Assembly (NCBI GenBank): GCA_023379805.1
Contig: JAMCPI010000017.1
Coordinates: 19,977 to 83,976, forward strand
DNA length: 64,000 nt
Direction of reading: 5' to 3'
Source: Nitrososphaerota archaeon
GTDB taxonomy: Archaea; Thermoproteota; Nitrososphaeria; Nitrososphaerales; JACPRH01
Part shown: piece after piece, positions 4,048 to 47,843 of the stretch
Layout of the letters: each line of letters begins with the position of its first letter
Numbering within the stretch: position 1 is the stretch's first letter
Notes under the pieces: model-generated
What the model was told of the DNA's origin: nothing
Database searches by the model: none
The model's input: the letters and a program-made list of their open reading frames with translations, nothing else
Program-made: the position numbers and the translations under genes

Positions 4048-4247
4048 AGAAGTAAGAGGGTTCCGCTGTGTCTCTTGCTGAAGTAGAAGACAGCGAGAGC
4101 GTCTAGTGCGTTTATGGCGCAGTGTATTGATGCTGTTACCGCTGCGTTATTCTTAGATGCGTTGGCTGCGTATTTCGCGACTTCCAGTATTTCTTCTGCT
4201 TTCTACAGATAGTTCTTGTAGAGTCCTTTATCGACTGGCCTTACCAT
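4005..4247 (-). pseudogene. Decayed HEPN-like toxin remnant downstream of the MNT gene
   Basis: The ATG at 4247 overlaps the MNT 3' end by 20 nt. The reading is MVRPVDKGLYKNYL, then an in-frame TAG (4205-4203), then KAEEILEVAKYAANASKNNAAVTASIHCAINALDALAVFYFSKRHSG. This is helical and HEPN-like, but no R-x4-6-H motif is present. The 3' end runs into the convergent gene 3451-4047. Confidence 0.35.
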
Positions 4248-4854
4248 GCTTAATGATCTCCTTTAGATCTTTTCCAGAGACGAGTGTATAGGATTCTAGG
4301 ATTGATTTTTCAAGGTCTCTATCACTTTCTTGAATGAAACGTTCTTTGCTCATAATCAGAGGTGATGGTGCAAAACCAAACTTGGAGGTGGTGGCGTCGC
4401 TTGCTCTTGAGACACATTCATTCGCGAATTCCCTGTCCTCTGCGATTACAAGGAGATCAATGTCGCTGGATTCCTTTTCCATGCCCTTTGCTACGCTTCC
4501 GAAGATTGCGACCGTGGAAATTCTTTTGTCTTTGTTGAAGAAGGGTTTGATTGTCGATATTAGAGCGCCTACTGTGTTCTCCTCCGCTCGGAATAATGGT
4601 TCGATCACCGATTTCAAAATGTAGCTCTCCTCGTTCAAACTTACTTGGTAGGCTCTTCCGACAGGTTGAAGCCTTACTACACCTCTTTTCTCAAGCGTCT
4701 TGAGCACCTTTGATGTCTCAGGGTGTGAAAGACCAGCAGTCTTGGCCAGTTCTCTTATTGTGAAAATCTTGCCTCTGAAGCGGAGAAGCGTTTTGAGTAC
4801 ACGAAAACTAGCCTTGCTACCTAGAATCTCGATTGTGTAGTTATGCAGTGCCAC
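4228..4854 (-). CDS. Winged-helix + minimal nucleotidyltransferase (MNT-type antitoxin-like)
   Basis: The N-terminal wHTH is FTIRELAKTAGLSHPETSKVLKTLEKRGVV. The NTase signature is FGSVAKGMEKESSDIDLLV (GS-x9-DxD). Confidence 0.8.
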   Translation of the reverse strand: MALHNYTIEILGSKASFRVLKTLLRFRGKIFTIRELAKTAGLSHPETSKVLKTLEKRGVVRLQPVGRAYQVSLNEESYILKSVIEPLFRAEENTVGALISTIKPFFNKDKRISTVAIFGSVAKGMEKESSDIDLLVIAEDREFANECVSRASDATTSKFGFAPSPLIMSKERFIQESDRDLEKSILESYTLVSGKDLKEIIKHGKASR

Positions 4855-5047: not shown

Positions 5048-7999
5048 TCAGTCGCCTATCCATTGCCTCAAGGACGACCCAATCTCATGATATAGCAGCA
5101 GCAGGTCATCTGTGTTGATCTTGATGCCAATCGCATTCAGAAATGCCTTGTCCAGCTCAACACGCAGCTCATCAACCTTGCCAGCAGAACCATACTGCTC
5201 CGGTAATCTTGTAAGCTGCTTGTCCTTGAACTCATCAAATATGGTGGCCAGCTTAGCTACCTGTCGTTTTGTCAGCTTGTCTATGTCCAATACTGGCAGC
5301 ATTCTCCACTGTGACTGCTTAAGTCTCACAAAGGCTCCTTGAGTTTCCTCTCTGCTTGCTAGAACAGTGAGTATGCCCCAAGTGGTGCTAAACCACAAGC
5401 AAAGTGCTTTGAGCCTTTCATGACTCTCATCCTTGAGCCGCACAGCATAGAAGATGTTTGATATGACTCGCTCCTCGGAAAACAGAGCGACTACATGGGC
5501 GGTATCAACCCTTATTCTGTCAGGTACAAGCAGGTTACCTGCGACCTGCTGGTATGTCTTCTTACCGCTTTCTCTAATCGTAACAGCATAGGCGTTAGGA
5601 GCTGCTTTCATCATCATCCTTTGTGCCTCCTCGCCTCCACGAAGTATCTTTAGGCCACCGGGAAGCTCTGCATCCACCATCTGATACGTGTCTGCGAACC
5701 TGTGTGCGTCTACTCCTATGGTCTCTATAAGCTCGTTGAACTTAACCAGAGGTAGCTCGATGTTCTGGCTTCCTATCTTCAATTTGCCGTCTAGCAGATG
5801 GACAACTTCCTCCATTATCTCAATGTCAGGAAGGAATGTGAACCGTCCCCAGTTATCCAAGTTATCAAGTAGTTTACTTCGCTCAATTGTGGTGAGAAAC
5901 GCTTTCGACTCTCCTGCCTGTACAAACCCCTCGGTTTTTCCCTCAATGCTTTTCGAGAGAGCAATAGCTTCTATACTGGTTCTAGGCTTCTTCAACAAGG
6001 TTACGAAGGTGGTCTTCTCATCACTCTTGTTGCCATCGCCGATGTTGTGTGCCTGCACCTTCTGAGCTATGAATAGACACTCGCTTAGACTTGTTGACTC
6101 GGAGAAGTTGTTCGCATTAGGCTCATAGCTAACGACGACGTATTGAAGATGGTACTTGGCGGCAAGCAAAGCCCTTACCAGAAACCAAGATATGCCGCTC
6201 AACAGGTTTTTGGGGAGAACAAAGCACAGCTTTCCATCCTTCTTCAAGCGCATATCCGCGAGGAAAAGGAATAGTAGGCCCTCTCCAGCCTGCCATATCT
6301 GCCTGTAAGGCTGAAACTCCTTATCAATGAGTAGTGGTTTAAGGCTCGTACCTTTGAGCATCTTTGTGGCGGTTTTCTCAAGGCTCTCCCTAATCTCGTC
6401 TCTTAGCAGTCCGTAATTCTCCAAGACTGCTTGACGAGACTTCTCCTCGCCGATAAAGCCAAACAGGCCACCACCAGCTCTGCCGCCTCGCCCAGTTGTT
6501 CTAGCGAACGGAGGGTTCATCGCAATAAGATCAAAAGGCTCAAGATGGAGAAGTTCTATCATCATCTCCTTCTCCTTCTTTTTGAGTCCTGTCTTAGTTA
6601 CCTCACCGAATATCTGGTCAAAGTTGCTGGTTAGTCTGGCAAGCTCTAGCGAACCCAAGGAGACCGATCGATCTTCCTCTCTATATCCCAGAGGAAAGGT
6701 GTAGACAGAAGAGAAGTCCTGCAGGGCTGTGCCCGGGCTGTGGAGAGATAGGTTCAGAGCAGTTATCTGCGTAGCGTACTCCAAGACATCAAAAGCGTGA
6801 CAGGACTTGATGAACTCGGTGTGGAAATCATTCTCAATCTCTCTTGGGCTTTTGTCGCTGCCTGACTTCAGCAGTTCAAGACGATAGTTGGCGTTAGCAG
6901 CACTATAGGCTGCGACCATCAGGGTGCCGCTGCCACAGGCAAAATCAGCAATTCTTGACAGCTTGGGTTTAGCTAGGTACAGTAGAAGATAGGCAGCCGG
7001 TATCTGGGTGTAGAAGGTAGCTAATCCTTTCTTGAGCGCCCAGTCACCGACAACCCGGTGATAGACCTTCCCAGCCAAGTCTCTTCTAAGCAGCGCCTTC
7101 TTTGATGATATTTCGGTGGCAAGAGATATGAGTTTAGTGAACTGTATGGAGAGCGGAGGAAACGACTTCAGCATGTCCTCGATTACTCTGAATATAGGCT
7201 CATAGTTAATGCCGAGAATATCGTGGGTTGCCTGCTCAACCGCCTGTTGCGGGCCCTTGGCCTTGGCAAGAGCATCTAGCGAGTCAAGTTGGTGAGCGTA
7301 TCTTACAGACTCGTAATAGACACTGCTTAAGAGAGTAGCCAGAGTTGCTTGAGCAAATATAGCCTCCTTGATCTCTACCGGGTCGCCGATTGAGAAGCCG
7401 TACAGCCTGTAAATCACGCTGTATAGGTTCTTCGCAACTATATCGCTGTCCTGATGATAGGAGAGGGCGTCCACGAAATCTTGGACGAGGCTACCCACAT
7501 CTTCCTCTGCCTTCCTTACGCTGTCCTCGCTGATTATGAACTGCGCAATCTCTTTGATGAGCGACGCTAGCGAGTTTAGATTCAGCTCGTGCCAGTCATC
7601 AATAGGCCTAGCTAGGATGTTCTTGTTGTGCAGTGCAACTAGCAGTGTGTCTGAGATGTCTTCAGGAACAACCACCCTGACAGACAAATCTATCTGCTGC
7701 AGCTTGTCTTCAATCTCGCTTTCAGTCAAGTCCTGTGGGAACTCATCTGGCGGATAATTGATGGCTATTGCAACGTCGGCAGCTAGCTGCTCAACCCTTT
7801 TTTTAGCATCATTCTCAGCATCCTTCCGATCATATGAGCCTTCTAAGACTATTGCAATCCCTTGACGGTAGATCAGCACGTCTTTCCTGCCCTGACTCAG
7901 GTGTTCACTATGAGAGATTACCCCAATTTGGTTTAGTAACTTTGAGAGCAATATGTTTAGTTTGGACTCAAAAGCTGCCTTTTGCTGCTGATCTGGCAT
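5048..7999 (-). CDS. Type IIG/IIL-like single-chain restriction-modification protein (N6-adenine MTase fusion)
   Basis: 983 aa. MTase motif I is ADFACGSGTLMVAAY and motif IV is LIAMNPPFARTTG (gamma-class order). The N-terminal GRKDVLIYRQGIAIVLEGSY resembles an HsdR_N / PD-(D/E)xK core but reads E-G-S instead of E-x-K. A long C-terminal region is compatible with a target-recognition domain. Confidence 0.7.
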   Translation of the reverse strand: MPDQQQKAAFESKLNILLSKLLNQIGVISHSEHLSQGRKDVLIYRQGIAIVLEGSYDRKDAENDAKKRVEQLAADVAIAINYPPDEFPQDLTESEIEDKLQQIDLSVRVVVPEDISDTLLVALHNKNILARPIDDWHELNLNSLASLIKEIAQFIISEDSVRKAEEDVGSLVQDFVDALSYHQDSDIVAKNLYSVIYRLYGFSIGDPVEIKEAIFAQATLATLLSSVYYESVRYAHQLDSLDALAKAKGPQQAVEQATHDILGINYEPIFRVIEDMLKSFPPLSIQFTKLISLATEISSKKALLRRDLAGKVYHRVVGDWALKKGLATFYTQIPAAYLLLYLAKPKLSRIADFACGSGTLMVAAYSAANANYRLELLKSGSDKSPREIENDFHTEFIKSCHAFDVLEYATQITALNLSLHSPGTALQDFSSVYTFPLGYREEDRSVSLGSLELARLTSNFDQIFGEVTKTGLKKKEKEMMIELLHLEPFDLIAMNPPFARTTGRGGRAGGGLFGFIGEEKSRQAVLENYGLLRDEIRESLEKTATKMLKGTSLKPLLIDKEFQPYRQIWQAGEGLLFLFLADMRLKKDGKLCFVLPKNLLSGISWFLVRALLAAKYHLQYVVVSYEPNANNFSESTSLSECLFIAQKVQAHNIGDGNKSDEKTTFVTLLKKPRTSIEAIALSKSIEGKTEGFVQAGESKAFLTTIERSKLLDNLDNWGRFTFLPDIEIMEEVVHLLDGKLKIGSQNIELPLVKFNELIETIGVDAHRFADTYQMVDAELPGGLKILRGGEEAQRMMMKAAPNAYAVTIRESGKKTYQQVAGNLLVPDRIRVDTAHVVALFSEERVISNIFYAVRLKDESHERLKALCLWFSTTWGILTVLASREETQGAFVRLKQSQWRMLPVLDIDKLTKRQVAKLATIFDEFKDKQLTRLPEQYGSAGKVDELRVELDKAFLNAIGIKINTDDLLLLYHEIGSSLRQWIGD

Positions 8000-9123: not shown

Positions 9124-10020
9124 TTGGCTAACAACAGCAAAAACAAGAACCAAGGCAAGTTGCAGGTGGCTTTTCAAGGCGAGAGAGGCGCCTACAGCGA
9201 AGAAGCCGTCCTCACCTACTTCCCACCGGAGCAGGTGGTCGTCAAACCCTGCAGAACCCTTTACGACACCTTCGAAGCCTTACAGAAACATAAGGTGGAC
9301 TACGCGGTCGTCCCGGTAGAAAACAGTCTAGAGGGCAGCATAAACGAAACCTATGATCTTCTCTTGGAGTCACCGTTGAAGGTGTGCGGCGAAATTCATC
9401 TCCGTGTCAGACACAGCCTGATCGGAAGGCCAGACGCGAAGCTCAGCGACATCAAAACAGCCTATTCACACCCGCAGGCCTTGGCGCAGTGCAGAGCACA
9501 TCTCCGGGAACTAGGCGTAAAACCAGTCGCTTTCTACGACACCGCAGGCAGCGTCAAAAGCCTTCGGCGAAGAAGATCAAAGTGTATAGCGGCAATCGCG
9601 AGCAAAAGAGCTGCAGAAATCTACGGCATGAAAATCCTAAGGGAAGGTATCGAAGACAACCAAAACAACTACACAAGATTCTTCATACTCGGCTTCAAAG
9701 ACGCAGAACCAACAGGCGAAGACAAAACCTCAATCGTCTTCTCAGCGAAACACGTCCCAGGCGCGCTCTACAAAGCCCTCAAAGAATTCGCAGACAGAAA
9801 CATCAACCTAACCAAAATCGAATCCAGACCCACCCGGCAAAAACTCTGGGAATACAACTTCTACCTAGACTTCGAAGGACACCGCACAGACCCCAAATGC
9901 AAACAAGCCCTTCAAGCTCTAAGCCAAAAACAAATGCTCACAAAAATCCTAGGCTCTTACCCCAAAGCAAAACAACAACCAAACAACCATCAAAACAACA
10001 ACGGTAGTAAAAACCTCTGA
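9124..10020 (+). CDS. pheA: Prephenate dehydratase
   Basis: VAFQGERGAYSEEA, VPVENSLEGSI, SHPQALAQC and NYTRF belong to the PDT domain. GALYKAL...NINLTKIESRP belongs to the ACT domain. TTG start. Confidence 0.9.
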   Translation: MANNSKNKNQGKLQVAFQGERGAYSEEAVLTYFPPEQVVVKPCRTLYDTFEALQKHKVDYAVVPVENSLEGSINETYDLLLESPLKVCGEIHLRVRHSLIGRPDAKLSDIKTAYSHPQALAQCRAHLRELGVKPVAFYDTAGSVKSLRRRRSKCIAAIASKRAAEIYGMKILREGIEDNQNNYTRFFILGFKDAEPTGEDKTSIVFSAKHVPGALYKALKEFADRNINLTKIESRPTRQKLWEYNFYLDFEGHRTDPKCKQALQALSQKQMLTKILGSYPKAKQQPNNHQNNNGSKNL

Positions 10021-10037: not shown

Positions 10038-10475
10038 TCACTCGATTAAGTAATCGCTTAACGAAGTGACAAGATGGGTATCCTTAGCTTTCGTATTTAG
10101 ATCGTCGTCCGCCGTAACCAATTTGCATCCGATATCCTCGGCTAGCTCTAGGTAAATTGCATCGTAGACCGTTATACCTAGTCTCTTGGCTGTTAACGTG
10201 GCCTTTGCGGTGGATTTAGATGACGGAGCGATGAAGGCTATGTCAAGTTGAAACAGCGCCTCAATATTACGTTCAAGGTCAACTTCAGTTATGTCTGATC
10301 TGTAGCGTAATGCATTGGCAACTTCGTAAATTATTAGCGCAGGTGCATAAAGCGTTAATCTACCCTCGATATGCTGATCTCTCAGAGTTAAAGCATCTTC
10401 AGAGTCCTGTTCAGGGACAAACCATTTTACCGCTACTGAAGCGTCAAGGACTAGGCTCTGCGACTCTGACGCCAT
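10038..10475 (-). CDS. vapC: PIN-domain ribonuclease toxin VapC
   Basis: 145 aa. It shows LVLDASVAVKW (the first acidic PIN residue), then ...YEVANAL..., then ...YDAIYLELA...LVTADDDL. Confidence 0.85.
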   Translation of the reverse strand: MASESQSLVLDASVAVKWFVPEQDSEDALTLRDQHIEGRLTLYAPALIIYEVANALRYRSDITEVDLERNIEALFQLDIAFIAPSSKSTAKATLTAKRLGITVYDAIYLELAEDIGCKLVTADDDLNTKAKDTHLVTSLSDYLIE

Positions 10476-10735
10476 TTCCGAATTACCTTGACGCTGGACC
10501 AGTCCTCAACCCGTTTAAGCTTCGCCCTATTACTGTCTATGACTTCGGCCGCCGTCTTCATCCTATCAATGTCGCGTATTCTTTTCTGATTTAGGCGTCC
10601 TCCTCCTTGTTGAGCCCAAGCCTTGAAGGCCATAGAGGCAGCTTGCCCTATCTTCAATCCCTCCTTGGACGCTCTGGACTTTAGTCTCCTGTAAGCCTCC
10701 TCGTCAACACCCTTTATCACTACATTCTCGCCCAA
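10451..10735 (-). CDS. vapB: RHH-type antitoxin (VapB-like), cognate to VapC 10038-10475
   Basis: This is the C-terminal 94 codons of the 196-aa track ORF. The reading ENVVIKGVDEEAYRRLKSRASKEGLKIGQAASMAFKAWA is a ribbon-helix-helix pattern. It overlaps vapC by 25 nt. The proposed internal TTG (10735) or GTG (10720) start is not proven. Confidence 0.5.
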   Translation of the reverse strand: MGENVVIKGVDEEAYRRLKSRASKEGLKIGQAASMAFKAWAQQGGGRLNQKRIRDIDRMKTAAEVIDSNRAKLKRVEDWSSVKVIRKWRQSRRA

Positions 10736-11041
10736 CGTCTGTGACCATGTGAAAACCGGCGCCTCAAGGTATAAAAAGTTATACTTCGCCGGTAGCTCGT
10801 AGCATAATGTTTTCTCGGCTGATTCTGAACGTGGATCGACGGGCCAAAACAGGAACAATTCGGACTCAAAGGGAATTATGTTACAATCTAGTCTTCCTTC
10901 TCCTTTGCCTTTTTTGAGAAGGTGGTACGCGAACTCCATTAGTGTGACGCTAGACATGTATTTCTCTGCATCCTCGATGTTTTTGAGCCACTTTAGAAAC
11001 TCCGGCTCAGAGAGAACATTGGTGTCAAGGAGTAATTTCAA
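10736..11041 (-). pseudogene. N-terminal PIN-domain fragment fused in-frame to the vapB-like ORF
   Basis: MKLLLDTNVLSE...SSVTLMEFAYHLLKK...IIPFESELF looks like the first half of a PIN domain. The distal acidic residues are missing, and the frame runs straight into the RHH segment. Confidence 0.4.
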
Positions 11042-14537: not shown

Positions 14538-16840
14538 ATGTTATCGAGCAAATATTGGATAACTAACTGTATATTACTTACCGTACTAACATTCAGCACA
14601 TTCGCACCTATACTAGCATACGCAGCACCCCTAGCAACTTCTGACAAGAACTGGCTGAACATGAACGGGAACACCTGGGCATGGAACTACAGCCCGGAGA
14701 CACAGATCAACAAGGATAACGTGAAGAACCTTGAAGTGAAATGGATATTCCCAATAACTAGCATAGCTCAAGCTGGCCCGAAAGGCTATGTATCACTTCA
14801 GCCTGGAGACGGTTCAAGCACACCGCCTATCGTCAGAAACGGCAAAGTCTACATCACGACCAATTACCAGATGATTATTGCACTAGACGGTAAAACAGGC
14901 AAGCAGCTGTGGAAAAACAGCTACGACATAAACCTCACTCAAGCAGTTCAGCGACTACCCTTAACCCCCGCAACCTTCGGCGGAGTACACAACCACGGCT
15001 TCAGATACTGGGAAACCGGAAACGCGCTCATCAACCGCGGCATAGCATGCGACTTCTACGGAGTTGACGCGGACACCGGCAAAACATCATTCTGGGTCCA
15101 AGACCTATGCAAAGACATCCCAGGCAACCTATACAAGTACAACACCGTCTACGCAGGCGCCAAATCCGGCAGCGTCGGAATATACGAGAAAGGTCACCAG
15201 TTCATCTACGTACTCTCAGGCGCAGTACACTCAAGCCTCTCACCCGCAGGCGATGGAAGACATGTCACAATGGGCATCGACACTACAACAAAGAACGTCA
15301 TATGGAGAGTCTTCAGCGCCCCACCCCAAGACGTTCCAACCAAGGACTGGGCACTCCAAGAATGCAGCATAGGATACTTCCAGACACACCCATGCAGCGA
15401 TGTAGCAGCCAAGAACCGAGCCGGGTTAGAATGGGACTGGGCATTACCCGACGCAGCACCAGTCAAGTGGGCTGGCGTAACCGCTAACTGGGGCCAGCTT
15501 GTCGTCGACGAAGACACCGGAATAGTCTACACTAATACAGGCAACCAGGGACCATACTCAAACATGTCAATGACACCTGGACCAAGACTCTACGGTTCAA
15601 CCATAATGGCCATCGACGTGAACGCAGGCAAACGCATATGGTGGCTACAACCCTTCCCACATGATCCCTATGATTATGACTGCAACTGGAGCGGAATACT
15701 AGCTGATGTTAAGGGCTAGGTAAAGTCTACATGAAGGGATGCAAGGAAGGCATTCTGTATGCAATGGACGCTAAGACAGGTAAGCCGGTGTGGACAGCGG
15801 ACGTAGTAAAGGAACAGGTAACATGGGGACAGATCCAAGCTGCCGCAGCCGAACCCCAGCCGAAAGGCATCCGGGCATATCAGCCAGATCCATATAGCTT
15901 CCACGATATGCGTGAGTGGAACTGGATCAGCTACCCAGCCGCAGCCCCAGGCCAAGCCGGCGAGCGCTGCAACCTTCCCTGCGGTCTATATCCGCACTGG
16001 TCAAACGGACTCTTCGGAACAGACCTCTCATACGATCCGGATACCAACACGCTATTCCAATACGCATCTGGACAACAGGTAGCCTTGCTTAAAGAATTCG
16101 GAATGAAGGATGGCGCAAGCCTCATGAGCACCAAAGGATACTCAATATCTAACTCAACCATAGTAGCCCGCGACGCAGCCACTGGCAACGTCAAGTGGAC
16201 ATGGTTCTACAAGTTCAGCACCCAGCGCAGCCACCTAGTTGTAACCAGTGACATGCTTCTTACAGGCTTCACAGACGGCTACATGCGCTTCTTCGACAAA
16301 AGCTCAGGCAAACTCCTCCGCGAAATGAACATCGGCACCCACATGGTGAACGGCTTCACCACAGGCCAAGACTCAGACGGCAAACAGAAACTATTCGGAG
16401 TTATAGGAGTAGGGGACGCAACCGCAGCCCGAGTATATCCAAGCCCAACAGCAGGAGGTGCAGTAATCGCACTAGGACTCTCAGAAACAGCCGGAGGCGG
16501 CGCAGCCCAAACCACCACAGTCACAACCACCTCAGCCACAACAATCACAACCGCAACCACCAGCACCATAACTACAACATCAGCCACAACAGTTACCAGC
16601 GCAACCACTAACACCGTAACCACAACAAGCGCCACAACCGTCACAGCAACACAATCAGCTCAAACACAAACTAAGACAACCACCGCAACGGTTACCTCCA
16701 ATGCGCCAGCTCAAACCACAACAGTAACCTCACAGGTCACTCAAACCACCGGACTACCCTCAGAAGTCACCTATGCAGCAGTCGGCATAGCTGTAATAGC
16801 TATCGCAGGCGCAGCATTCCTAGCAATGCGGAAGAAGTAG
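14538..16840 (+). pseudogene. PQQ-dehydrogenase-like paralog 2, interrupted by a 1-nt frameshift in a G-run
   Basis: ORFs 14538-15719 and 15731-16840 are the N- and C-halves of one paralog. At 15711-15722, aagGGGctaggt has three Gs. A fourth G would read K-G-L-G-K-V-Y-M-K-G-C-K-E-G, matching the family consensus. This could be a true pseudogene, a sequencing error or a slippage site. Confidence 0.6.
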
Positions 16841-19292: not shown

Positions 19293-19410
19293 CGCTTCGT
19301 AGCTGGGTGCTGCGGAGGTGGAGTTGTGGCGGCCGCTTCAGACTGGTCAAGTATTTTCCCACGGGTGCAGGAACCGCATGCCTGCGTCCAACACCCACTT
19401 TTCGTTTTTC
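19293..19410 (+). ncRNA. Copy B of the ~100-nt conserved intergenic element (candidate structured RNA)
   Basis: The core is GAGTTGTGGCGGCCGCTTCAGACTGGTCAAGTATTTTCCCACGG. The hairpin is GGGTGCAGG (19363-19371) / CCTGCGTCC (19381-19389). TTTTTTTAAT lies about 25 nt upstream and a T-rich run TTTTCGTTTTT lies downstream. Confidence 0.4.
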
Positions 19411-25084: not shown

Positions 25085-25185
25085 CACTCCTCGAACGCAG
25101 CAATACCTAGCGGTGGGGTTGTGGCGGCTCACGACAGGCTGGTCACATTTTCCCCACGGGTGCAGGAGCCACATGTCTGCACCCA
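25085..25185 (+). ncRNA. Copy D of the ~100-nt conserved intergenic element (candidate structured RNA)
   Basis: The core is GGGGTTGTGGCGGCTCACGACAGGCTGGTCACATTTTCCCCACGG. The hairpin is GGGTGCAGG (25158-25166) / TCTGCACCC (25176-25184), with 8 Watson-Crick pairs plus a terminal G-U. Confidence 0.4.
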
Positions 25186-27682: not shown

Positions 27683-27775
27683 ACTTGCTCCTCAAACGCG
27701 GCGATACCTCGCATAGCGGGGGATTGTGTCGGCTTAGATGAATATCCGTGTGACCTTTTCCGCCCTTCCCCGCTT
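27683..27775 (+). repeat. Copy E (degenerate) of the conserved intergenic element
   Basis: CTTGCTCCTCAAACGCGGCGATACCTCGCATAGCGGGGGATTGTGTCGGCT aligns with 25085-25128 of copy D. The 3' hairpin half has eroded. Confidence 0.35.
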
Positions 27776-31633: not shown

Positions 31634-32314
31634 CTACGATTGCGTAAGTTTTTCCAGAAGCTCCAATAGATGTTTCCTGCACCGTTTGAATCTCTCGTCA
31701 GGTATTTTCCCATAAGGTCCGTGTAAACTATCGCGGTAACTCTCAGACTCTATCTTTTGCTTTATCAGCACGATTCTCTTCTCTACGAGGTCGATCTCAC
31801 ATTTCTTTGAGACTAGATTTACAACTAAACTCCAATTAAGATCTTCGCCTGAGAGCATGAGGATATCCCTTATGTCCTGCTTTCTCCCAGATACAAACTT
31901 CATTGCAAACAGTAATTCAGGATCGGCTATCTTCATCTCAATCCTAGCTGGAGTAGCTCGTCCCACTGTAACCCGTTTCTTTGAGTACTTCTCGAAAAGC
32001 ATCTTCTCGAAGACTACTCCGGTGTGCCTATCAGAAACAGCGTTAACAAGCAAATCAAACGAAGCCTTCTCTTTCTCCCGCAGAAACCGCACGTAGTCAC
32101 CGTAAATCATATCACCAGATTCAGTCTTGACAAAACCATTACTCTTCAACGAGGCTTCAACCTCTGCGAGATCGTCAAGCACCACCAAATCACAGTCTAT
32201 GGAGAACCTCGGTGGAACATACGCGTTCACCGCGTAACCCCCTATCAGCACCACGCTCTGTTTAGGAATCTTCTCAAGCATCTCAAGAACAATTTTTTCT
32301 CGATCCTGCATCAT
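31634..32314 (-). CDS. AbiEii-like nucleotidyltransferase (type IV toxin-like)
   Basis: LIGGYAVNAYVPPRFSIDCDLVV matches the GG.A.....R.S.D.D signature of AbiEii/DUF-NTases. It overlaps the upstream wHTH gene by 4 nt. Confidence 0.55.
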   Translation of the reverse strand: MMQDREKIVLEMLEKIPKQSVVLIGGYAVNAYVPPRFSIDCDLVVLDDLAEVEASLKSNGFVKTESGDMIYGDYVRFLREKEKASFDLLVNAVSDRHTGVVFEKMLFEKYSKKRVTVGRATPARIEMKIADPELLFAMKFVSGRKQDIRDILMLSGEDLNWSLVVNLVSKKCEIDLVEKRIVLIKQKIESESYRDSLHGPYGKIPDERFKRCRKHLLELLEKLTQS

Positions 32315-32961
32315 ACAGCCTTAGCCGCCTCATCCAACACGCGTTTATCTATAATCGCCTTGGTTCTGACCTTAAACTTCGTACGCAAATATGCTAACGG
32401 ATACTCAAAGGCGTCGATATGCTTCTCACAGTACTTAACAACCTCACCCAAGGATACAACAGGCAAACCGTTATGCTTCTCAAATACTAATCTCTCCTGA
32501 GGTTTCAAAATGACGAATTCACCCAAGGCTGGCTCAGCCTCATTAACGAAAACCTTGATTCTATGCCTCCGGAAATACTCAACCCATTCGTATAACTCGC
32601 TGTTCAAGACCTTCACATAATACGGTGAATGCTCCCAACTCCTCTGCAAATAGCTATAACCTGTCCAAACCTCCACCGCACTAGCTTCAGTATACGCAAA
32701 TCTCCTACCAGACTCTTCCAACAACCTCGGAACCTTGAACTCAACCATAGACCTGAAGATATCATTCGAATTGACACAAACATACCTACCCTTCTCGACC
32801 CTCCTAATCCAACCTGCCTTCTCTAACACATGCAAGGTTTTCTTCACCATGCCTGATGAGATAAACCAAGACAAGTAATCCGAGGGGAAGCTACCGGTGG
32901 AGAAGCGGTTGTACAATATTGCATAAGCCTCCTGCGCATAGCTCGGAACTGGTTCAGACAT
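32311..32961 (-). CDS. AbiEi-like winged-helix protein (antitoxin-like partner)
   Basis: 216 aa. KKTLHVLEKAGWIRRVEKGRYV is wHTH-like. The gene is translationally coupled (ATGA overlap) to the NTase gene. Confidence 0.5.
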   Translation of the reverse strand: MSEPVPSYAQEAYAILYNRFSTGSFPSDYLSWFISSGMVKKTLHVLEKAGWIRRVEKGRYVCVNSNDIFRSMVEFKVPRLLEESGRRFAYTEASAVEVWTGYSYLQRSWEHSPYYVKVLNSELYEWVEYFRRHRIKVFVNEAEPALGEFVILKPQERLVFEKHNGLPVVSLGEVVKYCEKHIDAFEYPLAYLRTKFKVRTKAIIDKRVLDEAAKAV

Positions 32962-45243: not shown

Positions 45244-47367
45244 ATGTCACTTACTAGACATTATAGAGTAGCAATACTCTCCGTACTCGTAATTCTAGTA
45301 TTCAGCACATTCATACCAGCACTAGTGTACGCAGCACCCCAAGGCAGTTCTGAAAAGGATTGGCAATACACTGACGGCAACTCTTGGGCATGGAACTACA
45401 GCCCAGAGACTCAGATCAACAAGAACAATGTGCAGAATCTAGAGGTAAAGTGGGTCTTCCCAATAGGCACCAAAGCAAGTGCCCCCGCGGCACTGCCAAC
45501 TGCAAACTTAGGTGAAGGCTCAACCACACCACCAATAGTAAAGGATGGAACGGTCTTTATCACAACAAAGTACCTAAAGACCTACGCCATAGACGCGAAA
45601 ACCGGCGCTCAGAAATGGGTGCATGACTACAAAGTCGACTACAAAACAATTGCAGAAAAACTGAAGATCTCAATGAGTCTCGTCCTATCCCACCTTCACG
45701 GCACACGATACTGGGCGGGTGGAGACGCGATAATTAACACAGGAATAGTCTGCGACTTCTACGGCGTAGACGCCAAAACCGGTAGTGAAAAGTTCCGAGT
45801 TAACGATCTCTGCAAAGACGTACCCGGAAACATCTACAGCTACAAACCATCTCCTTCACAGCAAAACAACATAGGTACGTATGACAAAGGTCGTCAATTC
45901 ATCTACGTGCTGCCTGGAAACATGCATGGCGGACACGGCTCACTATACTACGGTGATGCAAGACACGTTACCATGGGCATCAGCATGGATAATTACCAAG
46001 TACAATGGCGCATCTACAGCTACCCACCTCAAGACGTCCCAACTAAAGACTGGGCTCTGCAAGAGTGCAGCATCGGATATTTCCAAACCTACCCCTGCAC
46101 AGATGTAGCAGCAAAGAACCAAGCCCAACTCGAATGGGACTGGGCAATGCCCGGTGAAAAACCAAGCCCCTACGGCGGAGTCACAGCTAACTGGGGACAA
46201 CCAGTAGTTGACGAAGACACAGGCATCCTATACACCAACACAGGCAACCAAGGACCATACACAAACATGACGCTCACACCCGGACCACGTCTCTACGGGT
46301 CAACCATCATGGCTATTGACATGAACGCAGGCAAACGCATATGGTGGCTACAACCCTTCCCGCACGACCCATACGACTATGACTGCAACTGGAGCGGCAT
46401 CCTCGCTGATGTCCCGACTCTAGGCAAGGTCTACATGAAGGGATGCAAGGAAGGTATCTTGTACGTGATGGATGCGGCCACAGGCAAGCCGAAGTATACA
46501 GTGGATGTAATCAATGATCAGGTGAAGTGGGGACAGGTAAGTGCAGCTGCAGCTACCGAGGTAAGCAAAGGTGGCATAAAGCACCACAAATCTGATCCGT
46601 TCAGCACGGACCTAAGAGAATGGAGGTTCATCTCAGATGGAAAGTACTGTGGATTGCCTTGCCCAATATATCCAACATTCGGCAACGGACTCTTCGCCAC
46701 CGACATGTCATACGATCCACAAACAAGCACATTATACCACTACGCACTAGGCGCAATGGCGAACATGATTGGAGAATTCCCGTATGTAGAAGGAAAGGCT
46801 CTAAACGCGTTCCAAACACCTGCTCAGTCTAACGTCACGCTAGTCGCTAGAGATGCAGCTACCGGTAAGGTCAAGTGGACCTACTTCTACGGACTCTCCG
46901 GTCAACGCGCCCACATGGTGGTGACACCAGACCTACTCTTCACAGGCTTCAACGACGGCATTATGAGGTTCTTCGACAAGAACACAGGTAAAGTGATATT
47001 CGAAAAGCCTCTAGGCGCAGGAATCTCAGTGGGAGTCACAACAGGTCAGGACTCAGATGGCAAACAAAAGATATTCGCGATACCCGGCAGCTCAGTTGTA
47101 GTAGCCCTCGGTCTCGCTGATAAAACCAGTGAAGTCAAAACCACAACAGTCACTTCCACAGCAGCTACTACTCAGACAGTCACAACAACACAAACAGCTC
47201 AAACACAAACAACCACAGTCACCTCAAGTGCACCGGCTAAAACCACGACAGTGGTTTCATCAGTCACACAGACAACCGGATTACCTTCAGAAGTCACCTA
47301 CGCAGCAGTCGGTATAGCTGTAATAGCTATCATCGCAGCAGCAGTACTAGTGATGCGTAAGAAGTAG
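45244..47367 (+). CDS. Secreted PQQ-dehydrogenase-like beta-propeller with stalk and C-terminal anchor (paralog 8, satellite copy)
   Basis: 707 aa. The signal peptide ends ...FSTFIPALVYAAP. Motifs present: HGTRYWAGGDA, PHDPYDYDCNWSG. The tail is GLPSEVTYAAVGIAVIAIIAAAVLVMRKK. Confidence 0.9.
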   Translation: MSLTRHYRVAILSVLVILVFSTFIPALVYAAPQGSSEKDWQYTDGNSWAWNYSPETQINKNNVQNLEVKWVFPIGTKASAPAALPTANLGEGSTTPPIVKDGTVFITTKYLKTYAIDAKTGAQKWVHDYKVDYKTIAEKLKISMSLVLSHLHGTRYWAGGDAIINTGIVCDFYGVDAKTGSEKFRVNDLCKDVPGNIYSYKPSPSQQNNIGTYDKGRQFIYVLPGNMHGGHGSLYYGDARHVTMGISMDNYQVQWRIYSYPPQDVPTKDWALQECSIGYFQTYPCTDVAAKNQAQLEWDWAMPGEKPSPYGGVTANWGQPVVDEDTGILYTNTGNQGPYTNMTLTPGPRLYGSTIMAIDMNAGKRIWWLQPFPHDPYDYDCNWSGILADVPTLGKVYMKGCKEGILYVMDAATGKPKYTVDVINDQVKWGQVSAAAATEVSKGGIKHHKSDPFSTDLREWRFISDGKYCGLPCPIYPTFGNGLFATDMSYDPQTSTLYHYALGAMANMIGEFPYVEGKALNAFQTPAQSNVTLVARDAATGKVKWTYFYGLSGQRAHMVVTPDLLFTGFNDGIMRFFDKNTGKVIFEKPLGAGISVGVTTGQDSDGKQKIFAIPGSSVVVALGLADKTSEVKTTTVTSTAATTQTVTTTQTAQTQTTTVTSSAPAKTTTVVSSVTQTTGLPSEVTYAAVGIAVIAIIAAAVLVMRKK

Positions 47368-47385
47368 AAAAACGAGTAGAATACA

Positions 47386-47422
47386 GCGATCTCTCGTAAG
47401 AGAGATCGTCTTTTAATTTTTT
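47386..47422 (+). terminator. Hairpin + T-tract (paralog 8)
   Basis: CGATCTCTC (47387-47395), loop gtaa, GAGAGATCG (47400-47408), followed by TTTTAATTTTTT. Confidence 0.55.
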
Positions 47423-47562
47423 ATCTAGTTGAACAGCAACGTAGTTTCTAACTATGCATTTGTATATATTTCTCATTAAGTAGATACATGATATATGCAC
47501 TATAGAATATTCATTCACAAATTTTTTTTGCTTCAGTTGTTCCTTCCCACTAACGCGGATAC

Positions 47563-47678
47563 TTTCGCGGAACTTAGGGGTGCTGCGAAGGTGTGGGGGT
47601 GTGGCGGCCCGCTTCAGGCTGGTTAATATTTTCCCCACGGACGTAGGAGCCACATGCTTGCGTCTATCAGCGTGAATT
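47563..47678 (+). ncRNA. Copy C of the ~100-nt conserved intergenic element (candidate structured RNA)
   Basis: The core is GGGGTGCTGCGAAGGTGTGGGGGTGTGGCGGCCCGCTTCAGGCTGGTTAATATTTTCCCCACGG. The hairpin is GGACGTAGG (47649-47657) / CTTGCGTCT (47667-47675), fully paired through compensatory changes. Confidence 0.4.
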
Positions 47679-47843
47679 ATGTCAAGTAGGCGTGAAGTAA
47701 TGTGATCGCGTTGCTTGTGCAGGGTCAGCTTATCTCTACAGCAAAAAGAGAGATGATGCTTCTCTAGCTTGGCACGAATTAGTTGTCGTAAAAACCTATG
47801 ATTAATATTATTAACCCATTTTTCGGAGGCCACCTATACATCT

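Follow-up and report, generated by a model that had tools for sequence, protein, structure and literature searches.

The window, that is, the whole stretch of 64,000 nucleotides of archaeal DNA that was analysed, was found to contain four intact copies and one truncated copy of an element of about 75-110 bases, the fold of which is strand-specific and conserved in related Thaumarchaeota assemblies. The element is best explained, with reasonable though by no means complete confidence, as a stand-alone structured small RNA family, probably protein-bound, which makes it a candidate new family. To our knowledge, few structured non-coding RNA families are known in the Thaumarchaeota (Nitrososphaerota). 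No such family was found in the literature on their uncultivated heterotrophic lineages, and no description of this particular RNA was found there either. The genes of the window are archaeal (RNA polymerase subunit L, TFS, PCNA, primase, GINS, L44e and AglB), and nine PQQ-dehydrogenase paralogues are encoded.

Copies, fold and strand of the element

A covariance model built on the 81-nt core was searched against the window and recovered exactly four copies, A-D, with E values of 1e-14 to 1e-20. No further matches appeared in the window with the filters off, and none were obtained on the opposite strand of the element; the truncated fifth copy escapes this search. The copies and their parts, with coordinates counted from the first nucleotide of the window, are the following.

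47561-47665, + strand: copy C, whole element (covariance-model match of 91.3 bits, E 1e-19; MFE fold)
47561-47592, + strand: P0 hairpin of copy C (MFE fold)
47593-47598 with 47633-47638, + strand: P1 of copy C (MFE fold)
47600-47605, + strand: box UGUGGC of copy C
47602-47609 with 47617-47625, + strand: P2 of copy C (MFE fold)
47626-47632, + strand: junction AUAUUUU of copy C
47639-47665, + strand: helix P3 of copy C, with the 5' arm at 47639-47647, the loop AGCCACAUG at 47648-47656 and the 3' arm at 47657-47665 (covariation)
19295-19402, + strand: copy B, with the core at 19318-19389, P3 at 19363-19389 and the loop AACCGCAUG
19295-19317, + strand: P0 hairpin of copy B, CUUCGUAGC/GCUGCGGAG (P0 pair counts)
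3' end of copy B, + strand: C-rich tail AACACCCAC, then a T-run
25087-25184, + strand: copy D, with the core at 25113-25184, P3 at 25158-25184 and the loop AGCCACAUG
25087-25112, + strand: 5' extension of copy D, type 2 (same 5' type in L007 and L020)
2857-2950, - strand: copy A, with the core at 2927-2857, P3 at 2883-2857 and the loop AGCCAAACG (covariance-model match of 67.5 bits)
2950-2928, - strand: P0-like 5' part of copy A
27688-27734, + strand: truncated fifth copy, which retains the type-2 5' extension and GGGGGAUUGUGUCGGCU, the remaining core being deleted

Copy A was the most degenerate of the intact copies in the window. The truncated copy kept the core start GGGGGATTGTGTCGGCT and lost about 60 nt of core, as well as some of the following spacer, when compared with the copy that follows the preceding PQQ-dehydrogenase gene. 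Together, these two copies show that not every copy is maintained. In all four intact window copies, the next ORF (2680, 19570, 25375 and 47844) starts about 175-190 nt after the 3' end of the element, a regularity that is absent in other genomes, where this gap measures 70-350 nt.

The core, of about 74 nt, consists of three helices on which RNAalifold and inspection by hand agreed. P1 (GUGGGG/CCCCAC), with two double changes, encloses P2 (UGGCGGCC/GGCUGGUCA), which bears a bulged G and two fixed G-U pairs and is nearly invariant in sequence, the sole change being that of its top pair from C-G to A-U in the L170 copy. The junctions between P1 and P2, UUG and (A/G)UAUUUU, are conserved. P3, a 9-bp stem placed directly after P1, is free in sequence and kept in pairing, its loop is a nearly invariant 9 nt, AGCCACAUG, and a C-rich tail follows it. 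Roughly two thirds of the 74 nt of the core are without variation, among them the helix with the fixed G-U pairs and the bulge. An additional covarying 5' hairpin, P0 (96% paired, with two double changes among six sequences), was found in one subtype of the extra copies only, that is, of those outside the conserved gene order described below; another extension is common to copy D, L007 and L020, and neither type is present in the syntenic copies.

Of 19 distinct full or near-full copies, 18 were aligned. In this alignment, 95% of the cells were paired and 11 of the 23 pairs were changed on both sides, and none of 500 shuffled controls reached the observed covariation values. The first-pass annotation had described a path of compensatory change in the hairpin arms of three window copies, and the arms that it quoted are present exactly in copies D (GGGUGCAGG/UCUGCACCC, 25158-25184), B (GGGUGCAGG/CCUGCGUCC, 19363-19389) and C (GGACGUAGG/CUUGCGUCU, 47639-47665). 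All nine pairs form in each of the three, and the wobble path runs as described, with pair 3 passing from G-C through G-U to A-U and pair 4 from U-A through U-G to C-G. Only the range that it assigned to the hairpin, 47649-47675, had to be corrected, since it lies about 10 nt too far 3' and covers the loop and the 3' arm alone, the true range being 47639-47665. When the covariance model and the alignment widened to 18 copies were used, the covariation was confirmed, with compensatory double changes in eight of the nine pairs of P3, such as those of L170 (GGGCAAAAG/CUUUUGCUC) and L166 (GGACGCGGG/CCCGCGUCC).

The same annotation had proposed that selection acts on a fold of the + strand and not on a DNA palindrome, and on this point the covariation, the asymmetry between G-U and A-C and the alifold of both strands all agree. 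P2 and P3 together contained 56 G-U cells versus 5 A-C cells, and the consensus fold of the + strand (-24.0 kcal/mol, 22 pairs) was considerably more stable than that of the complement (-12.7 kcal/mol, 16 pairs). Pairing alone is compatible with both RNA and single-stranded DNA; the invariance of the junctions and of the G-U pairs, together with the behaviour of the element in the genomes, argues for its working as RNA.

When folded as single sequences, the copies gave modest z-scores, from -0.4 to -2.1. A protein-coding reading was rejected on account of single-base indels between copies inside the core, and the ORF that runs over copy C on the - strand (47330-47833) matches nothing in Pfam and is not preserved at the other copies. 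Pairing of the P0 loop with the 3' tail and an alternative P1 formed with the tail CCCAC, both of them possible by eye in some copies, were found to be inconsistent across copies and were discarded. The resemblance of GGCUGGUCA to tRNA D-loops or to the 3' end of 16S rRNA is one that we take to be coincidental.

Distribution and genomic position

In related Thaumarchaeota assemblies, 19 distinct full or near-full copies were identified, plus one end-truncated fragment (L169). A pattern scan of species-representative genomes returned true copies in three Thaumarchaeota assemblies only (L002, L007, L008, L011, L013, L014, L020, L024 and L026). A metagenome scan with the pattern GGCGG..CAGGCTGGT..CCCAC yielded at least eight true matches, those listed being near-duplicates of known loci, and was otherwise dominated by chance matches in GC-rich bacteria; the pattern scan of viral contigs gave two chance matches only. 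Because the element adjoins an MptE-like gene in L002 and L035, homologues of the MptE-like protein were searched and their contigs were scanned with the covariance model. The element was found at the same place in L155, L159, L160, L166, L170 and L176, and partly in L169, and was absent from the contigs of L156, L157, L163 and L171-174 in this search.

The resulting gene order, consisting of a divergent MptE-like gene, the element, a small C2H2-type ORF, deoxyhypusine synthase and H+-pyrophosphatase, is shared by at least eight lineages, the element standing beside the divergent MptE-like gene in L035, L155, L159, L160, L166, L170, L176 and L002. Since the upstream gene is divergent, the element is not a 3' UTR at this locus. 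Between these lineages, the MptE proteins share only 48-84% identity, and the core presented 81% mean DNA identity between syntenic loci, compared with 66% for the DNA of the adjacent MptE gene, much of the divergence of the core being compensatory. This fixed genomic position is kept across marine, groundwater and soil lineages, all of them Thaumarchaeota of the non-ammonia-oxidising kind.

Sequences resembling gene signals were found on both sides of the element. A ATGTAATAAT/ATAATTAAT box is conserved in all eight syntenic loci, 35-60 nt before P1, and ATGTAATAAT may be the TATA box of the element; in the extra copies, A/T-rich boxes occur 13-26 nt before P0. Downstream, the syntenic copies carry a C-rich tail, CUCCCCCAC, usually a T-run, and then a conserved box, AAAGGTTTACAT, that precedes the next ORF by about 35-45 nt and is a candidate for the own promoter of the downstream zinc-finger/deoxyhypusine-synthase operon. 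The 'hairpin, CUCCCC, T-run' with which the syntenic copies end is similar to the 3' flanks of the PQQ-dehydrogenase genes, and at least four T within 29 nt after P3 were counted in 11 of the 18 copies (about 60%). In spacers as AT-rich as these, TATA-like and T-rich boxes are common. The element would thus be expressed from a putative promoter of its own, with predicted RNA ends and a putative terminator.

The spacer between the MptE-like gene and the element contains the conserved blocks GGTAAATAAG, ATTGACnnnnnTTGTCA (palindrome-like), GTTAGA and ATGTAATAAT (L035 6550-6625, with equivalents in L155, L159, L160, L166, L170, L176 and L002), and it resembles two divergent promoters that share an operator. 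Between the element and the deoxyhypusine synthase gene lies the C2H2-type zinc-finger ORF of 53-56 aa (L160 9536-9697, - strand; L176 1079-1249, - strand; L166 about 9520-9680, - strand), which has no Pfam match and is degenerate in L035. Its product, a C2H2-type zinc-finger protein, could be a partner of the RNA.

The synteny, the promoter-like boxes, the conservation of the core and the retention of one extra copy at the same locus in two assemblies (L011 and L026) together suggest an independent small RNA gene family. In the preferred explanation, one ancestral copy would have been placed, as a stand-alone gene, between the divergent MptE-like gene and the zinc-finger/deoxyhypusine-synthase operon, and the extra copies would have arisen in the lineage of the window, several of them directly behind PQQ-dehydrogenase genes, the RNA presumably being independent of its neighbours. 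As for its mode of action, the folded RNA would be recognised by a protein or another partner through P2, the U-rich junction and the P3 loop, with P3 serving only as a rigid presenting arm. Recognition by a partner is suggested by the invariance of about two thirds of the core, in which a helix without covariation is included. An invariant core combined with a stem that is free in sequence but kept in pairing is typical of RNAs that are read by proteins or folded into tertiary structures, and less so of seed-type antisense RNAs; neither a simple antisense RNA nor a leader belonging to the next gene accounts for the pattern as well.

The conservation of the core, the covarying stem, the invariant loop and the fixed position point to a function that is important to these organisms. 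A bolder proposal, which we regard as unlikely, is that of a new archaeal class of functional RNA with a compact, largely invariant tertiary fold, acting either as a subunit of an RNP (perhaps with the adjacent C2H2 protein) or as a ligand-sensing or self-processing RNA that toggles between lower P2 and the pseudoknot discussed below, and specific to heterotrophic Thaumarchaeota rich in PQQ dehydrogenases. The element is moderately interesting as it stands and would be considerably more so if a partner, a ligand or an activity were found.

Competing explanations

Trans-acting, base-pairing 'sibling sRNAs', with the invariant loop and/or the C-rich tail CUCCCCCAC serving as a seed for mRNAs, for instance at G-rich ribosome-binding regions, are an unlikely explanation, which nevertheless shares with the preferred one the same stand-alone gene signals. 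Several paralogues do have one invariant loop and differing 5' parts, and the single-stranded, C-rich tail is conserved in the syntenic copies, whereas it varies among the extra copies. Moreover, the conservation extends over the whole core, the non-covarying helix included, which is unusual for seed-type sRNAs, and only 8 sites complementary to the loop were found in the window versus 14 expected, the exact ones being the elements themselves.

A cis-acting, riboswitch-like leader, in which an H-type pseudoknot between the P3 loop and UGUGGC, possibly switching with lower P2, would control the downstream gene, was judged improbable. The pseudoknot had been put forward in the first-pass annotation, and the complementarity behind it does exist: GCCACA and UGUGGC match perfectly in copies C and D, with one wobble and one mismatch in copy B and one mismatch in copy A. 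Six Watson-Crick pairs between loop and box are possible in most of the 18 aligned copies, two loop variants keep the pairing by means of G-U, and box and loop are the most conserved single-stranded parts of the element. The invariance of both strands of P2 would also fit a strand with two alternative partners, and the L024 copy, in which a G-G disrupts lower P2, retains the pseudoknot via a G-U pair.

The pairing itself, however, was not supported. Its 96% of paired cells equals the value of the shuffle control because both partners are nearly invariant, no pair is changed on both sides, and the probability of finding a 6-mer complement to the loop by chance in the 46 nt upstream is about 0.03-0.08. 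The box columns 14-17 are the 5' strand of lower P2, where they pair with columns 34-37 (97% kept), and therefore the pseudoknot and the lower four pairs of P2 are mutually exclusive. In addition, U14 was changed to C in two separate lineages, L160 and L166, with no compensation in the loop, a change that causes a terminal mismatch in P2 and a central C-A mismatch in the pseudoknot. The geometry would be sterically tight as well, with a link of 1 nt from P1 to the pseudoknot and loop connectors of 1 and 2 nt. With zero double changes, the exclusion of lower P2 and the uncompensated U14C, the H-type pseudoknot lacked support; that it is real is doubtful, and if it is, it would probably be an alternative to lower P2.

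The neighbouring genes bear on the same explanation. The next gene is on the same strand in 7 of about 8 independent contexts, and read-through into it, or a leader role, could occur. Nevertheless, the downstream genes are mutually unrelated, encoding hemerythrin, PQQ dehydrogenase, a topoisomerase, an unknown protein, a zinc-finger protein and an alcohol-dehydrogenase-like protein; the gap of 70-350 nt to the next gene holds that gene's promoter-like box at the syntenic loci; and the extra copy of L011 and L026, which lies next to an HTH regulator gene, is convergent to that gene. A riboswitch or 5' UTR leader of a related gene set was not supported, in view of the unrelated downstream genes, the promoter-like box and the convergent copy.

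The expansion of PQQ-dehydrogenase genes is a metabolic hallmark of these archaea, and the element might be a gene-end element, namely a 3' terminator, insulator or stability element of these genes copied by their tandem duplication, although this was considered quite improbable. With the exception of copy A, the window copies (B, C, D and the truncated one, four of five) lie 60-200 nt behind PQQ-dehydrogenase stop codons, and the same layout was found in L007 and L020. The 3' flanks of these genes (gene ends 14372, 16840, 19225, 22461, 25013, 27615, 30060 and 47367) display a conserved hairpin, GACGATCC-loop-GGATCGTC, which a short spacer, mostly C-rich, separates from a T-run; the module looks like a terminator. 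The 25375-27615 gene is followed by the truncated copy, which shows that a duplicate has decayed. However, the syntenic copy of eight lineages has a divergent upstream gene and no PQQ dehydrogenase nearby, copy A and the copies of L011/L026, L013 and L024 are in other contexts, and the PQQ-dehydrogenase genes already have their own terminator-like module before the element. Furthermore, the differences between copies B, C and D are compensatory, which shows that the fold stayed under selection after the duplication, as these copies diverged. The association with PQQ-dehydrogenase genes could reflect co-duplication or a role at the 3' end, and the extra copies behind these genes hint that the element may be connected with how the genes are regulated.

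A mobile or repeated DNA element (MITE, REP or PATE-like), with hairpins acting as single-stranded DNA in the manner of IS200/IS605 ends or attC, is highly improbable. In its favour, the element occurs in several copies and is strand-specific, with G-T pairs of the sort that single-stranded transposon ends also tolerate, and the L002 copy has a TnpB gene 177 nt downstream. Against it, neither terminal inverted repeats nor target duplications were observed, no transposase was found near the window copies, and the element keeps its position across lineages that share only 50-60% identity in the flanking protein. The attC core sites are either missing or wrongly ordered. The TnpB gene of L002 belongs to an insertion on the far side of the next promoter box, which the near-identical L176 locus lacks, for which reason a link to TnpB or to insertion sequences was rejected. 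The insertion itself (L002 1157-2602, + strand) places TnpB, with a Cas12f1-like TNB domain, between the zinc-finger promoter box and the ORF, the L176 locus being otherwise 80-99% identical.

Other features of the window were also recorded. Every PQQ-dehydrogenase paralogue ends in a lysine-rich tail (..RKK/KKK/QKK), and one of these genes appears split into ORFs 14538-15719 and 15731-16840 (+ strand, 393 and 369 aa, different frames), through either a frameshift that made it a pseudogene or an error in the assembly. A cluster of defence or toxin-antitoxin type (4228-4854, 5048-7999, 10038-11041 and 31634-32961) comprises an HTH and nucleotidyltransferase protein, a protein of 983 aa with an N6-methylase domain and two PIN-domain ORFs, as well as a weak AbiEii-like match, below the Pfam cut-off, beside an ORF without a match.

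Comparison with known families and systems

No match to Rfam 15 was obtained for the whole window at the gathering thresholds, and three copies searched at E values up to 10 gave chance-level matches or none; the element is a straightforward candidate for addition to Rfam. Likewise, ARAGORN detected no tRNA or tmRNA in the window, and the T-loop sequence is absent from the alignment. C/D box sRNAs were rejected, as the C box (RUGAUGA) occurs in none of the 18 copies and CUGA in 4 of the 18, at inconsistent places. H/ACA sRNAs were rejected as well: ACA is found within 3 nt after P3 in 2 of the 18 copies, P3 is an uninterrupted 9-bp stem, and the internal loop between P1 and P2 (3 x 7 nt) contains no tandem G-A, with neither a kink-turn nor a pseudouridylation pocket. 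In the case of integron attC sites, GTTGTGG at the 5' side and CCAAC at the 3' side are, on either strand, in the wrong order with respect to R''(RYYYAAC)/R'(GTTRRRY), and the element follows only some genes and not each. PATE or REP sequences of the IS200/IS605 kind were discarded, no transposase domain having been found in the flanking window genes or in the other scanned ORFs up to 50 kb.

The element nonetheless shares traits with each of several known systems. Like the archaeal C/D and H/ACA guide RNAs, it would correspond to multi-copy small RNA genes in the range of 60-130 nt with conserved boxes and variable parts. With REP/PATE sequences, IS200/IS605 ends and attC sites it has in common strand-specific, imperfect hairpins repeated intergenically just after genes, and it differs from them in its stable orthologous position, the absence of an associated transposase or integrase, of terminal repeats and of R''/R' sites, and a conservation that extends well beyond the hairpin. 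Orphan structured RNA motifs known from comparative genomics and the preQ1-II, SAM-II and fluoride riboswitch aptamers are similar in being small, with largely invariant junctions and loops, covarying scaffold helices and a possible pseudoknot between a loop and an upstream stretch; in contrast to these, the element has no Rfam match, no consistent place in 5' UTRs and no common class of downstream genes, and its pseudoknot shows no covariation. The bacterial sibling sRNAs Qrr1-5 and LhrC1-5 are, as the element would be, paralogous stand-alone genes, several per genome and each in its own intergenic region, with an invariant exposed loop on a freely covarying stem and C-rich single-stranded motifs. 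Unlike these, the element is archaeal, no targets of it were found, its P2 never covaries apart from the top pair, nearly the whole 74-nt core is invariant rather than a short seed, and one copy is deeply conserved in position.
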